Below are positions 30,424 to 38,088 of a DNA stretch of 64,000 nucleotides, piece by piece. The stretch covers positions 129,005 through 193,004 of the forward strand of contig CAVTNG010000009.1 in assembly GCA_963736015.1 (NCBI GenBank), written 5' to 3'. The stretch is from an uncultured Chloroflexia bacterium (GTDB taxonomy: Bacteria; Chloroflexota; Dehalococcoidia; DSTF01; JACRBR01). Both the position numbers and the translations under genes were made by a program. Numbering within the stretch: the first letter of the stretch is position 1; the number at the start of each line of letters is the position of its first letter. Below the pieces are notes generated by a model. The model was not told the origin of the DNA, made no database searches, and saw nothing but the letters and a program-made list of their open reading frames with translations.

Positions 30424-31270
30424 CTACAGCCCCAGGATCTCCGCCAGCACCGGCCGCACATACTCCATGAACAGCCCCGGATTCTCGCTCATCGGAAAGT
30501 GCCCGAGCCCCGGCATGTCCTGATAACCGCGCCCGGAATCCGCTCCGCCAGCGCCTCGCCATCGCCGGCGTCGATGACCAGTCGTACTCGCCGTACATGA
30601 TGTCGACCGACACGCTCCGACGTATCGATCTGCTCCGCGGTTTCCGTCAGGTCGTGGTCGACGGAGTAGTAGTACAGGTCGCCCTTGAACACCGGCGGCG
30701 CGCCCTGGCTGTACACCCACGATGTCTCGTGCCGCAACGCCTCCGGGCTCGTCGGCGACATCAGCCCGTACATGACGCTTGCCTTGAAATCGTTCGAGAT
30801 CCGCGGGTGATGCCACATGTCCGGCGTACCCGCCGGGCGTGCGCGCCGACGCCTCGAGCCCGACGACCGCGCGGAAACGCTCCGGGTGATGCAGCGCCAG
30901 GTCGATCGCCAGGTGCCCGCCGATCGAACTGCCCATGAACGCGGGCCGCTCCAGCTCCAGCGCGTCCGCGAGCGTCAGCGGCACCTGCATCAGGAAGTCC
31001 TTCGTCAGCCGGTACTCCTGCGTCCACCAGTCCGTGCTCTCTGGCGGCAGCGACTTGCCGTGATACGGCAGGTCGTACGCGATCACGCGGAAACGTTCGC
31101 GCGAGCTCCGCGTCTCCGAGCACGTGCCGCCACTGGCGTCCATCCGCGCCGGCCGTGTGCTGCAGCAGCAACGGAATGCCCGCCCCCGCCTCTTCGAAGT
31201 ACACGCGATGCTCGACGCCGTCGATGGGCAGGTACACGTAGCGCCCGCTGATCGCGTCGAATCGCGCCAT
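30424..31270 (-). pseudogene. alpha/beta-fold hydrolase, about five frame changes
   Basis: MARFDAISGRYVYLPIDGVEHRVYFEEAGAGIPLLLQHTAG / RVIAYDLPYHGKS...AFMGSSIGGHLA (nucleophile elbow GSSIGG) / ...MPGLGHFPMSENPGLF. Pieces lie in three frames. Confidence 0.7.
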
Positions 31271-31642
31271 CACGCCTCTCCGTCCGCGCGCGCCAGCTCG
31301 ATCAGCCGCCGCAGCGCCGCGTAGTACGGCCCCACGATCCTCGACGCGTCCCTCCATCATGAAGCCGTGACGCGCGACAGCGCCGTACAGGTCCTGGTAG
31401 AACGGCCGCGGCCGCGGCTCCAGCATCGCGGCCCACCCGTCCTCGGGCCCGCTGATCCGTATCGCCCCGCTCGTCTTCCGCGGCACCTCGCTCGCTTCTT
31501 CGATGCGGCCGCCGCGCACGGTCATCCGCACCGTGTCTGCCCCGCCCGCGAACACGACGTCTGCATCCCACATGCGCGCCGCCAGCGCGAACTCGCCGTC
31601 GTCGTTCGCCCGCCGCATCGCCGCCAGCATCCGCTCCTTCAC
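31270..31642 (-). pseudogene. small conserved-looking protein (possible SCP2-like fold), frame change near 31335
   Basis: GTG overlaps the PrpD-family stop (GTGA). VKERMLAAMRRANDDGEF...RISGPEDGWAAMLEPRPRPFYQDLYGAV..., then GPYYAALRRLIELARADGEA*. Its stop overlaps the next ATG. Confidence 0.45.
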
Positions 31643-32972
31643 GAAGCCTCCGGCCGCGCGAGCGCGATGATCTCCCGCACAGACGTCGCCGTCTCGATGC
31701 CGTCGATGGCGTCCCGAAGCCGCTCCGCGCGCTCCCGCCCGATCACCGGCGACGCCAGCCCGAAGAACTTCGCCGACAGCGCCTCCCACTGCCGCTCGAG
31801 GTCCGCCGCCGGCCGCCCCGTGTCTGCGTCCGCGCACAGCTCCCGCCCGTCCGCGATCACCCGCACCGATCCCCGCGTCGAGGGCAGCCCCTGCTGCGGC
31901 GCGTACGTCACCCGCTCGAGCATGCCGCGCAGCTCCGCGCTCGCCATCCGCTCGTCCGTGAACGCCTCCGGATCGCCCGTGTCGTCGCCCAGCAGCGCCA
32001 TCGCCGTCGTCGCCCGCAGGCTGAACTTGCCCTCCAGACCCGTCCGCGGCTCCGCGATGTCGCACACGCCGATGCACTCCGCCGATCCCAGGATCGTCGA
32101 CCGACTCGATGTCCTCCGCGCGCAGCCCGTCGCGCCGCAGCGTGAGCGCGGCCTCGATCGGCGCGTGCGTCAGGTAGCACGATGCGTGGTACTTGAACAG
32201 CGTGTCGCGGATCACGAACCGTTCGCCGACGCGCATCGAGCCGCGCCGCGTCCGGCTCGCCGCCGCCGTGCGTCGAAGCGAACCCCTGCGCCGTCTCGAT
32301 GATCGACGTGTTCCCCGTGTACCCGCCGCGCGCCAGCAGCGCCGAGAGCAGCCCGTTCTGCGCCGCCCGCCCCGCGTGCAGCGGCTTCGCCATCGTCCCG
32401 AAGCCGGATTTCAGCCCCGCCGCCTGCGTCCCCGCCAGTGCCATCGCCTGCAGCGTCCGCTCCCGGTCGAGCCCGAGCAGCCGCGCGCACGCCATCGCCG
32501 CGCCGAACGTCCCCAGCGTGCCCGTCGCGTGGAAGCCCAGCGCGTAGTGCCCCGGATTGAGCAGCGCCCCCAGCCGGCACTCCGTCTCGACGCCCGCGAT
32601 CACCGCATCGATGAACGCCGCACCGCCGATGCCCTCCCGCTCTGCAAGCGCCAGCGCCGCCGGCACCACGGGCACGCTCGGGTGCCCCGACATCATCGTG
32701 TGCGTGTCGTCGAAATCCAGCGCGTGCGACGCCGCCCCGTTGATCAGCGCCGCCGACAGCATCCCCGCCCGCTGGCACCGCCCCACCAGCCCCGCGTCGC
32801 CGCCCTCGATCGCCTCCCGCGTCAGGATCTCCGCCAGCGGCTCCCGCGCCCCCGCGATCGCGCACCCGAACCAGTCCAGCAGGCAATGCCGCGCAACGAT
32901 GCGCGCCTCATCACTGACCGCGCCCCGCATCATCCCATCGATGCGCTCAACCAGATCGAGAGTGATCCCCAT
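31639..32972 (-). pseudogene. MmgE/PrpD family protein (2-methylcitrate dehydratase superfamily), two frame changes (~32240, ~32097)
   Basis: MGITLDLVERI...CLLDWFGCAIAG...ASHALDFDDTH...GFHATGTLGTFGAA, then ERFVIRDTLFKYHASCYLTHAPIEA, then STILGSAECIGVCDIAEPRTGLEGKFS. Confidence 0.8.
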
Positions 32973-35966: not shown

Positions 35967-37183
35967 CCGAGCGCACCGGCCCCCTCACCGACCTGCGCGT
36001 GATCGATCTCACCCAGGCGCTCGCCGGTCCCTTCTGCACCATGCTCCTCGCCGATCTCGGCGCCGACGTCATCAAGGTCGAACCTGCCCGCGGCGACATG
36101 ACGCGCGGCATGCCCCCCTGGCGCGGCGACCGCGAGGCCGCGCCCTACGGCGGCTACTTCGCCAGCATCAACCGCAACAAGCGCAGCATCGCCCTCGATC
36201 TCCGCAAGGACGCCGACCGCGAGGTCCTCTTCCGCCTCGTCGAGACCGCCGACGCCGTCGTCGAGAACTCGCGCACCGGCGTCATGGACCGCCTCGGCGT
36301 CGGCTACGAGACCATGCGCGCCCGCAACCCCCGCATCGTCTACGGCGCCATCCGCGGCTTCGGCGATCCCCGCACCGGCGCCAGCCCCTACGCCGACTGG
36401 CCCGCGTTCGATGTCATCGCGCAGAGCATGGGCGGCGTCGTCGGCCTCACCGGCCCCACCGGCTCGAAGGGCTTCCCCGCCGGCTCCAGCATCGGCGATC
36501 TCGTCCCGGGCACCATGACGGCGCTTGGCATCGTTTCCGCCATCTACCGCGCGAAGCAGACCGGCGAGGGCCAGTTCGTCGATGTCGCCATGTACGACGC
36601 CATCCTCGCCATCTGCGAGAACCTCGTGTACCAGTACTCGTTCGCGGGCCGCGTGCTCGAGCCGAAGGGCACCGGTCACGCCGCCCTCTGCCCGTTCGAC
36701 GTCTTCGAGACGTCGGACGGCGCCGTCGCCATCGCCGCCCCCACTCCGCACCACTGGAGCGTGCTCTGTGCCATCATCGATCGCGTCGACCTGATCGATG
36801 ATCCCCGCACGTTCGAGAACATCGCCCGCCTCGAGCACAGCGACATCGTCATCGACGCCATCTCGTCGTGGACGAAGCAGCGCACGCGCCTCCAGGTCGT
36901 CGAAGAGCTGTCCGGCCGCGTACCCTGCGGCCCGGTGAACACCGCCACCGACATCTTCAACGACCCGCACGTCGCCGCCCGCGGCATGCTCGCCGATGTC
37001 GAGCTGCCCGATGGCGAGCGCGTCCAGATCGCCGCCCCGCCGATCAAGTTCACAGAGACCCCCACGCGCGTCTACCGCCGTCCACCGCTCCTCGACGAGC
37101 ACCGCGCCGAGATCCTCGCCGAAGCCGGCATCGAAGACCCCGGCTCATCAGCGAAGGTGCCAACGAAGGACACCGCATCATGA
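35963..37183 (+). CDS. family III CoA-transferase (CaiB/BaiF; itaconate/mesaconate CoA-transferase-like)
   Basis: ATGA overlap. [41 protein letters not shown]...[16 protein letters not shown]. 406 aa, intact. Confidence 0.9.
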   Translation: [406 protein letters not shown]

Positions 37184-38088
37184 CCACCCGCCTCCGCCGC
37201 TCCGAGCTCGCCGTCCCTGGCTCCCAGCCCCGCATGATCGAAAAGGCGCCAACCTCCGGCGCCGACCTCGTCTTCCTCGACCTCGAGGACGCCGTCGCGC
37301 CGCCGCAGAAGGAACACGCGCGCGCCGCCGTCATCGACGCCCTCAACGACCTCGACTGGGGCCGCACCGTCCGCGCTGTCCGCGTCAACTCCGTCGACAC
37401 CGTCTGGGCCCACGACGACGTCATCGACGTCGTCACGAACGCCGGCGCGAATCTCGACATCATCATCGTCCCGAAGGTGAAGGCCCCGCGCGACGTCTGG
37501 TTCGTCGACACGCTTCTCTCGCAACTCGAAGCGAAACTCCGCCTCGATCACCGCATCGGCCTCGAGCTGCTGATCGAAGAGACGGAAGCCCTCGCGCGCG
37601 TCGAGGACATCGCCGCCTGCTGTCCCCGCGTCGAGGCGCTGATCCTCGGCGTCGGCGACCTCTCCGCCAGCCAGGGCATCCGCTCCGGCCACGTCACCGA
37701 CCCGTCGATGCGCTACCCCGGCGACATGTGGCACTACGCCCGCAACCGCATGATCGTCGCCGCCCGCGCCAACGGCCTCGACGCCATCGACGGCCCCTAC
37801 CCCAACTATCGCGACGCCGATGGTTACCGCCGCGACGCCACCTGGGGCAGCACGCTCGGTTGCGCCGGCAAGTGGTGCATCCATCCCTCGCAGATCGAGA
37901 TCGCCAACGACGTCTTCGCCCCCACCGAAAAGGAGATCGCCCTCGCCCAACGCATGTGCGATGCCTACGAATCCGCCCAGAGCGGCGGCGCCGGCGCCGC
38001 CGGCGAGTCCGGCGTCCTCGTCGACGCCGCCTCCGTCCGCATCTTCCAGGCCGTCCTCGACCGCGCCCGCCTCACCGGCCGCCTCTAA
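37180..38088 (+). CDS. HpcH/HpaI aldolase / citrate lyase beta (CitE)-like acyl-CoA lyase (citramalyl/malyl-CoA lyase-like)
   Basis: ATGA overlap. MTTRLRRSELAVPGSQPRMIEKAPTSGADLVFLDLEDAVAP...IIVPKV...GVGDLSAS...GKWCIHPSQI. Confidence 0.9.
   Translation: MTTRLRRSELAVPGSQPRMIEKAPTSGADLVFLDLEDAVAPPQKEHARAAVIDALNDLDWGRTVRAVRVNSVDTVWAHDDVIDVVTNAGANLDIIIVPKVKAPRDVWFVDTLLSQLEAKLRLDHRIGLELLIEETEALARVEDIAACCPRVEALILGVGDLSASQGIRSGHVTDPSMRYPGDMWHYARNRMIVAARANGLDAIDGPYPNYRDADGYRRDATWGSTLGCAGKWCIHPSQIEIANDVFAPTEKEIALAQRMCDAYESAQSGGAGAAGESGVLVDAASVRIFQAVLDRARLTGRL

Follow-up and report, generated by a model that had tools for sequence, protein, structure and literature searches.

The window analysed here, the whole stretch of 64,000 nt (G+C ~68%) from a contig of an uncultured Chloroflexia bacterium (Chloroflexota; Dehalococcoidia), carries at positions 30424-38088 a divergent cluster of eight genes; all coordinates below are window positions. 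Codon-position G+C and Pfam searches placed the eight genes at the coordinates given by an earlier note on this DNA. Pfam recovered, in this order, MaoC/MC_hydratase, acyl-CoA dehydrogenase (ACAD), MaoC/MC_hydratase, CoA_transf_3 and HpcH_HpaI on the plus strand, and MmgE_PrpD (N and C domains) and an alpha/beta hydrolase on the minus strand. The comparisons set out below make it reasonably probable that a complete and probably working pathway for a 2-substituted succinate, with methylsuccinate the likeliest, is encoded here, and that the frame breaks in several of its genes are assembly errors. The genes are as follows.

30424..31270, minus strand: alpha/beta-fold serine hydrolase (Pfam Abhydrolase_1/6)
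31270..31642, minus strand: small protein of ~123 aa with a predicted SCP2 (sterol carrier protein 2) fold (Foldseek search with the model of an ortholog)
31639..32972, minus strand: MmgE/PrpD-family protein, predicted epimerase/isomerase of a 2-substituted succinate (Pfam MmgE_PrpD_N and _C)
33798..34293, plus strand: MaoC1, single hot-dog domain, predicted N-terminal substrate-binding half of a mesaconyl-CoA hydratase (NF041625, 8HGN)
34290..35492, plus strand: ACAD of 400 aa, predicted methylsuccinyl-CoA dehydrogenase (Pfam ACAD N, M and C domains)
35489..35966, plus strand: MaoC2, single hot-dog domain, predicted C-terminal catalytic half of a mesaconyl-CoA hydratase (4E3E, 8HGN, NF041625)
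35963..37183, plus strand: family III CoA-transferase of 406 aa counted from the ATGA-coupled start, with an alternative ATG at 35909 (Pfam CoA_transf_3, 408 bits)
37180..38088, plus strand: CitE/HpcH-fold acyl-CoA lyase, putatively of the malyl-CoA/beta-methylmalyl-CoA lyase (Mcl) type (5UGR, 4L9Y)

The plus-strand genes are chained by a GTGA overlap at 34290-34293 and by ATGA overlaps at 35489-35492, 35963-35966 and 37180-37183, and these overlapping stop and start codons suggest that the five genes are made together. On the minus strand, the start of the small gene and the stop of the PrpD-like gene share a GTGA (31639-31642), and a TGATG lies at 31268-31272. The families and the GTGA/ATGA overlaps are thus where the earlier note put them, by Pfam and by base-level reading of the overlaps.

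The lyase aligns end to end with the malyl-CoA/beta-methylmalyl-CoA lyase of M. extorquens (5UGR; 268 bits, 48% identity, 297 columns), followed by Mcl1 of R. sphaeroides (4L9Y; 231 bits, 39% identity). Its other relatives were the Chloroflexus-type MCL (153-158 bits), CLYBL (124 bits), RipC (3QLL; 104 bits) and the citramalyl-CoA lyase Ccl of Pseudomonas (PA0883; 72 bits, 29% identity), and it reached 162 bits on the NCBIfam model RipC_Ccl, the cutoff of which is 375. By sequence, we assign it to the malyl-CoA/beta-methylmalyl-CoA lyase type and not to the Ccl/RipC type. The transferase scored 464 bits on NF041294, the model of haloarchaeal succinyl-CoA:mesaconate CoA-transferase (Mct), with the next model at 275 bits, compared with 160 bits (31% identity) for the Pseudomonas transferase Ict (PA0882) and 82 bits (7XKG) and 74 bits (TIGR04253) for the intramolecular Mct of Chloroflexus. 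The haloarchaeal Mct forms no ester other than the C1 one, mesaconyl-C1-CoA, and is most efficient (kcat/Km) with methylsuccinate; its activity with itaconate is low, and the haloarchaeal mesaconyl-CoA hydratase (Mch) has none with itaconyl-CoA (PMC5592240).

The two MaoC genes correspond to the two ends of a single, two-domain enzyme. MaoC1 aligned with positions 20-169 of the 358 positions of NF041625 (139.8 bits) and with residues 5-150 of 8HGN (Mch), and MaoC2 with positions 229-358 of the same model, residues 189-317 of 8HGN and residues 191-318 of 4E3E. In the Mch of M. extorquens, the substrate sits where the two domains meet; its free carboxylate is bound by Ser79 and Arg142 from the N domain, and catalysis involves Asn226 and His231 from the C domain (PMC10164722). 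The equivalents of Ser79 and Arg142 are kept in MaoC1, which has Tyr in place of the catalytic His; MaoC2 keeps Asn226 and His231 in the sequence NTAHAHF (motif NTAxxHF), with Phe replacing Tyr248. Because the binding residues are found in MaoC1 and the catalytic residues in MaoC2, the two proteins are most readily understood as halves of one hydratase rather than two hydratases, and the enzyme would be heteromeric. Bacterial relatives with one-domain Mch homologs, unstudied, had already been remarked on in the Haloarcula paper of 2017 (PMC5592240), and the operon described here, if its reading is right, would account for them.

The ACAD was compared with 6ES9, a (2S)-methylsuccinyl-C1-CoA dehydrogenase (Mcd). 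The pairs Ser248/Arg252 and Thr418/Arg421 are kept, so that two of the three carboxylate-binding arginines of Mcd are present with their positioning partners; Arg252 of Mcd is essential by mutagenesis (PMC5798300). The catalytic Glu lies within IFEGTSEIQ. PA0879, the C4-type dehydrogenase of Pseudomonas, keeps neither pair; it lacks the C-terminal EGT catalytic motif and the equivalents of Arg93 and Arg267 of the window's ACAD. The pocket therefore appears to resemble that of the C1-type Mcd and not that of PA0879. For the PrpD-like protein, the best PDB match was IDS epimerase (200 bits), with the methylsuccinate isomerase (Msi) PA0881 at 186 bits and 35% identity. It keeps all seven named isomerase residues (His88, Asp/Glu91, His102, Tyr148, His152, Lys202 and Lys266), among them His102 and the second base Tyr148 of the two-base epimerase Msi (PMC12290011); residue 91 is Asp instead of Glu, as in IDS epimerase.

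Arranged in order, these enzymes would form a route from the free acid. The PrpD-family protein would interconvert the enantiomers of methylsuccinate, and the family III CoA-transferase would then move CoA from succinyl-CoA to give the C1 thioester, methylsuccinyl-C1-CoA; mesaconate would enter at the same transferase, one step later than methylsuccinate. The ACAD would oxidise methylsuccinyl-C1-CoA to mesaconyl-C1-CoA, and the two-subunit hydratase would add water to yield beta-methylmalyl-CoA, MaoC1 giving the carboxylate-binding Ser and Arg and MaoC2 the catalytic Asn and His. The Mcl-type lyase would finally cleave beta-methylmalyl-CoA into glyoxylate and propionyl-CoA. The family assignments, the conserved residues, and the gene order and its spread are observations; the substrate, the regiochemistry, the products, the heteromeric state of the hydratase and the roles of the hydrolase and the SCP2-fold protein are what we infer from them. 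The operon is best read as the 'C1-route' counterpart of the Pseudomonas methylsuccinate cluster. We further propose, tentatively, that it represents an undescribed bacterial C1-thioester route from methylsuccinate or mesaconate, and perhaps from larger 2-alkylsuccinates or opened fungal lactones, to glyoxylate and propionyl-CoA, with an obligately heteromeric, gene-split hydratase. The sole bacterial route for methylsuccinate shown so far is the C4 route of Pseudomonadota, published in 2025, in which work the C1 ester was called a dead end for Cupriavidus necator (PMC12290011).

Several points weigh against this interpretation. By score, the ACAD resembles generic short-chain ACADs no less than Mcd (Bcd 265 bits, 6ES9 Mcd 231 bits, PA0879 182 bits with 33% identity), and it lacks both Arg376/Glu380, the site of the third arginine, and the ~170-residue N-terminal extension of Mcd. 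The 464 bits of the transferase are below the curated NF041294 cutoff of 700, and the two MaoC proteins score about equally on the RipB/Ich model of Yersinia (94-106 bits, cutoff 340). The haloarchaeal Mch and the Chloroflexus Mcl also take C4 and citramalyl substrates, such as mesaconyl-C4-CoA (PMC5592240), and with such promiscuity in Mch and in some Mcl enzymes the sequence does not reveal the regiochemistry. A transferase of Natrinema with 49% identity stands in a sulfonate-type context, so specificity varies within the transferase family. Finally, the frame breaks treated below are denser at the locus (~10 in 7.7 kb, 8 of them within 1.9 kb) than the window average.

The gene order was surveyed in 80 related loci found with the transferase. 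The order MaoC1-ACAD-MaoC2-transferase occurred in 29 of them, in most with the lyase directly next, and another 13 had two MaoC genes side by side. The 29 loci came from Dehalococcoidia, Binatia, Actinomycetota (including a cultured Blastococcus), Sulfurifustaceae and others. The earlier note had found the two single-domain MaoC genes flanking the ACAD unusual; this judgement does not hold, with the order recurring in over a third of the loci and the two genes read as halves of one hydratase. On Tistrella mobilis pTM1 and Pseudosulfitobacter plasmids, a PrpD-MaoC-ACAD-MaoC-transferase-lyase series is preceded by a DctPQM TRAP transporter and accompanied by a regulator of the IclR or LysR type, and the hydrolase and SCP2 genes are absent there. 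No characterisation of the operon was found in a literature search of open-access papers. It is best described as a widespread operon that varies on the clusters already known for methylsuccinate/itaconate degradation. All three acids (methylsuccinate, mesaconate and itaconate) occur as metabolites in soil and gut, and the operon was found to span Chloroflexota, Binatia, Actinomycetota and several classes of proteobacteria; a C1 route, if true, would extend C5-dicarboxylate turnover beyond Pseudomonadota. It would also give the Mcd-Mch-Mcl module of synthetic CO2-fixation designs a natural entry point for the free acid.

Among the known systems, the Mcd-Mch-Mcl1 module of the ethylmalonyl-CoA pathway (6ES9, 8HGN, 5UGR/4L9Y) comes close to the predicted conversion of methylsuccinyl-C1-CoA into glyoxylate and propionyl-CoA, with a lyase nearly half identical to Mcl, the active-site residues of Mch and two Mcd arginines kept. 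Unlike that pathway, the locus has neither a crotonyl-CoA carboxylase/reductase nor an ethylmalonyl-CoA mutase, the free acid would enter through a CoA-transferase, the ACAD is without the N-terminal extension, and the hydratase is split. The Mct and Mch of the haloarchaeal methylaspartate cycle (Haloarcula hispanica Hah_1336 and Hah_1340; PMC5592240) are the best models for the transferase and MaoC1, and MaoC2 fits the C half of this Mch about as well as it fits RipB/Ich. The differences are that the scores stay below the curated cutoffs, that two proteins stand against one two-domain Mch, and that genes for glutamate mutase and methylaspartate ammonia-lyase are missing; because an ACAD and an isomerase are present, the role would be catabolic and not anaplerotic. 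Haloarchaea may have taken the Mct and Mch genes of their methylaspartate cycle from bacterial operons of this kind and fused them.

With the Pseudomonas cluster, which was compared directly with the window proteins (reference locus L082), the agreement is in logic more than in sequence. PA0878-PA0883 of P. aeruginosa, like its C. necator counterpart, encodes Ich, Mcd-C4, VOC, Msi, Ict and Ccl (PMC12290011), so the statement in the earlier note that it includes an ACAD and a PrpD-family protein was correct. Both clusters co-locate a PrpD-family isomerase, a family III CoA-transferase, an ACAD, a MaoC hydratase and a CitE-fold lyase; both would epimerise, activate, oxidise, hydrate and cleave, with the Msi residues conserved; and TRAP transporters adjoin the alphaproteobacterial versions of the window operon. 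These five common families bear out the earlier description of a CoA-dependent C5-dicarboxylate-type catabolic cluster. The sequences are distant, however, with identities of 29% for the lyase, 31% for the transferase, 33% for the ACAD and 35% for the PrpD-like protein and no detectable similarity between the hydratases. The ACAD differs in its catalytic-base motif and pocket, the lyase is of Mcl rather than Ccl type, the hydratase occupies two genes, and the predicted C1 thioester would end in propionyl-CoA plus glyoxylate, where the Pseudomonas route gives acetyl-CoA and pyruvate.

The 3-hydroxypropionate bi-cycle of Chloroflexus (Mcl, Mch, Mct, Meh) shares with the locus its phylum, Chloroflexota, and the protein folds. 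The earlier note had left the substrate undecided and had kept a Mct/Mch/Mcl-type system as an alternative, and this alternative stands insofar as the nearest enzymes are Mcl-, Mct- and Mch-like; the Chloroflexus features, an intramolecular Mct and separate Mch and Meh, are not borne out. The lyase is nearer to the proteobacterial Mcl (268 versus 153 bits), and the intramolecular Mct is only a distant relative of the transferase. Because MaoC1 lacks the catalytic His, the two MaoC genes would not be separate Mch and Meh, and a glyoxylate assimilation module like that of the bi-cycle, with Mch, Meh and an intramolecular Mct, was rejected on the Tyr at this position and on the remote transferase.

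The same chemistry might serve another substrate, and the accessory genes bear on this. The small protein had no Pfam or NCBIfam match. An AlphaFold model of its ortholog in L003, one of five related Dehalococcoidia metagenome-assembled genomes (MAGs; L001-L005), had a pLDDT of 93.5, and its best Foldseek match was sterol carrier protein 2 (2CX7; TM 0.78, E 6e-7), with further matches to UbiJ-SCP2 and the SCP-2L domain of MFE-2; the protein is thus predicted to have the SCP2 alpha/beta fold. The small gene adjoins the hydrolase in 14 loci. The hydrolase has a GSSIGG nucleophile elbow and weak matches to the PcaD/enol-lactonase family, the PcaD-type models of NCBIfam being matched far under cutoff. 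The SCP2-fold protein and the serine hydrolase may be accessory, the free acid being released from an ester or a lactone. Also at this end of the locus, the SCP2-like gene of L002 (4035-4340 of that locus) needs two tblastn frames (residues 1-102 and 99-123), and at the site equivalent to window 31337 L002 is one base shorter than L001 and L003.

The true substrate could be a succinate whose 2-substituent is larger or of another kind, such as an alkylsuccinate, an alkylitaconate/paraconate-type fungal lactone opened by the hydrolase, or a sulfonated analogue; the lyase would then yield glyoxylate and a longer acyl-CoA. We consider this unlikely but worth weighing, since the linkage of a lipid- or acyl-binding SCP2-fold protein and a lactonase-like hydrolase to the cluster recurs in the 14 loci, L001 carries a VOC-family gene where Pseudomonas has PA0880, a proposed 2-hydroxyparaconate lactonase, and the isomerase pocket could fit larger C3-modified substrates (PMC12290011). 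The Natrinema homologs, moreover, adjoin a sulfite exporter. The Tistrella and Pseudosulfitobacter operons, on the other hand, dispense with both hydrolase and SCP2 protein and have TRAP transporters of the small-dicarboxylate type, and C5 acids are the substrates of the nearest characterised relatives of each of the five core enzymes. As to the Natrinema case itself (L086, Natrinema halophilum plasmid, NZ_CP084880.1 181841-198992), a transferase 48.7% identical to that of the window adjoins an ACAD and a pair of neighbouring single-domain MaoC genes. Downstream of these lie a TauE/SafE sulfite exporter, LLM oxidoreductases and a phosphosulfolactate synthase, and neither a lyase nor a PrpD gene is present; this enzyme set may act on a sulfonated acid.

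The triad of itaconate degradation had been proposed by the earlier note as the nearest relative, and the comparison does not sustain it: the lyase and the transferase score far higher with 5UGR and the Mct model than with PA0883 and PA0882, and neither MaoC1 nor MaoC2 matched the hydratase Ich (PA0878) in phmmer at E<1e-3. That the locus is nevertheless an itaconate or C4-route cluster, in which itaconyl-CoA or methylsuccinyl-C4-CoA would pass through (S)-citramalyl-CoA to acetyl-CoA and pyruvate, the route of Pseudomonas, Cupriavidus and Yersinia, seems to us improbable. It would agree with the five protein families of PA0878-PA0883 (PMC12290011), with the scores of the MaoC proteins on the RipB/Ich model and of the lyase on RipC_Ccl, and with the acceptance of citramalyl-CoA by the Chloroflexus Mcl and of mesaconyl-C4-CoA by the haloarchaeal Mch. 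It is opposed by identities of just 29-35% to the characterised Pseudomonas enzymes, by a lyase much nearer to Mcl than to any citramalyl-CoA lyase, by the low activity of the haloarchaeal Mct with itaconate and the lack of any activity of the Mch with itaconyl-CoA, and by an ACAD pocket like that of the C1-type Mcd. We therefore retain methylsuccinate and the C1 thioester as the favoured assignment.

About ten single-base indels interrupt five of the eight genes: two in the PrpD-like gene, one in the small gene, five in the hydrolase and one each in MaoC1 and MaoC2. The earlier note was right that disruptions exist, although it counted four genes instead of five. The PrpD-like gene has two extra bases, near 32234 and 32098, the small gene one extra base near 31337, and MaoC1 one extra C near 34111. 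Relative to its relatives, the hydrolase has extra bases near 31099, 30825 and 30607-30610 and missing bases near 30554 and 30525, and it is read in five frame pieces in this assembly. In MaoC2, the ATG at 35489 is out of frame (+1) with the body of the gene, the shift lying before the conserved NYFEDF motif (start compared with L002-L005). The ACAD, CoA-transferase and lyase genes are uninterrupted.

A codon-usage frame tracker run over the whole 64 kb flagged 23 suspect same-strand frame jumps, 19 of them +1, in many unrelated genes. The sites include 735, 5978, 10199, 13078-13415, 20096-20442, 42394, 44437-44972, 45315, 46709, 46741 and 48452. Comparison contigs from public soil-metagenome short-read runs (X1 and X2), 97-100% identical over ~3.7 kb, were without the extra base at every such site within their reach, namely 32098, 32234, 34111 (a 99.5% identical contig, one base fewer), 45315, 46709 and 46741, and a contig ~91% identical was without the extra base at 30610. 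Among the near-identical contigs the window was never the one short of a base, and six indels stood beside ~46 substitutions in the ~3.7 kb of near-identical coding sequence. A search for recorded contigs encoding the window's lyase found none. The five related MAGs had the same locus intact, with transferase identities of 70-84%, and hydrolase orthologs of 287-301 aa were intact in L001-L003. The frame-corrected PrpD-like protein has no stop codons and is 64.9% identical to that of L003 over residues 5-443, equal in this to the intact orthologs of L001, L004 and L005. Because the jumps occur throughout the window, the contigs lack the extra bases, the relatives are intact and the corrected PrpD-like protein is normally conserved, the frame breaks are very probably assembly errors and not mutations or gene decay.

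The opposite view, raised by the earlier note as a locus left non-functional by real disruptions, would make the left half a recently decaying pseudogene cluster in this strain. The concentration of eight breaks in 30.5-32.3 kb with none in the ACAD, transferase and lyase genes would fit such decay, as would the insertion with duplicated target that parts the operon from its upstream region, and the short-read contigs could come from sister strains ~1% different. Yet similar breaks are found window-wide and in other gene families, nearly all are single extra bases, in-frame stops and larger deletions are absent, protein conservation is normal once the frame is corrected, and the ratio of 6 indels to ~46 substitutions in ~3.7 kb far exceeds natural variation; we regard decay as very improbable. 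Programmed frameshifting or four-base decoding was likewise rejected: no quadruplet, slippery motif or homopolymer was common to the seven sites read base by base, L001-L003 do not conserve the positions of these sites, and the extra bases are absent from the near-identical contigs. In this genome, frame breaks should accordingly not be taken as pseudogenes, and its apparent pseudogenes, including the ACAD array at 44-49 kb, are to be treated as unproven.

A feature missed by the earlier note is an F420-related insert with a flanking direct repeat between the two operons (33105-33865).

33126..33216, plus strand: left copy of a 91-nt direct repeat (repeat search, 95% identity, spacing 649)
33273..33692, minus strand: inserted F420-dependent Ddn/nitroreductase-family gene, outside the conserved cluster (TIGR00026)
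33775..33865, plus strand: right copy of the 91-nt direct repeat, heading the real MaoC1 gene (repeat search)

The repeat covers the start of MaoC1 (22 codons) together with the 24 nt that precede it, and its left copy heads a dead stub of 29 codons (33149-33238). The Ddn-family gene between the copies scored 97.7 bits on TIGR00026 (cutoff 46) and is absent from the corresponding position in L001-L005; L001 has its VOC-family gene at this spot. The gap between the two operons is 906 nt in the window, compared with 144-603 nt in L001-L005 (144-264 nt in L002-L005). The right junction of the insert is spanned by a short-read contig over 33638-33800 (99% identical), and the left junction is uncovered. 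A conserved intergenic motif, GCGGCCAGTATAGC..CGATCTAGGATA..CCCTCATG, occurs upstream of MaoC1 in the Dehalococcoidia relatives (window 33085-33150; L001 5380-5420; L002 5730-5790; L003 5745-5800) and may be an operator or promoter. In the window, the whole motif is kept only at the left repeat copy, and the insert parts the plus-strand operon from it. A promoter and terminator scan gave no signal above chance.

Outside the locus, the neighbouring genes are DinB, MOSC, an ECF sigma/anti-sigma pair and an amine oxidase; they bear no relation to the cluster, and their synteny is not shared by the relatives. DNA synteny with the relatives ends at 30436 and 38087; the borders drawn in the earlier note are therefore right. 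Farther along the window, the GC skew is strongly negative (-0.10 to -0.23) as far as ~42 kb and is positive beyond ~44 kb, independent of gene strand, with the minimum of the cumulative skew near 43 kb, and the switch near 42000-44000 may be a replication-related switch point.

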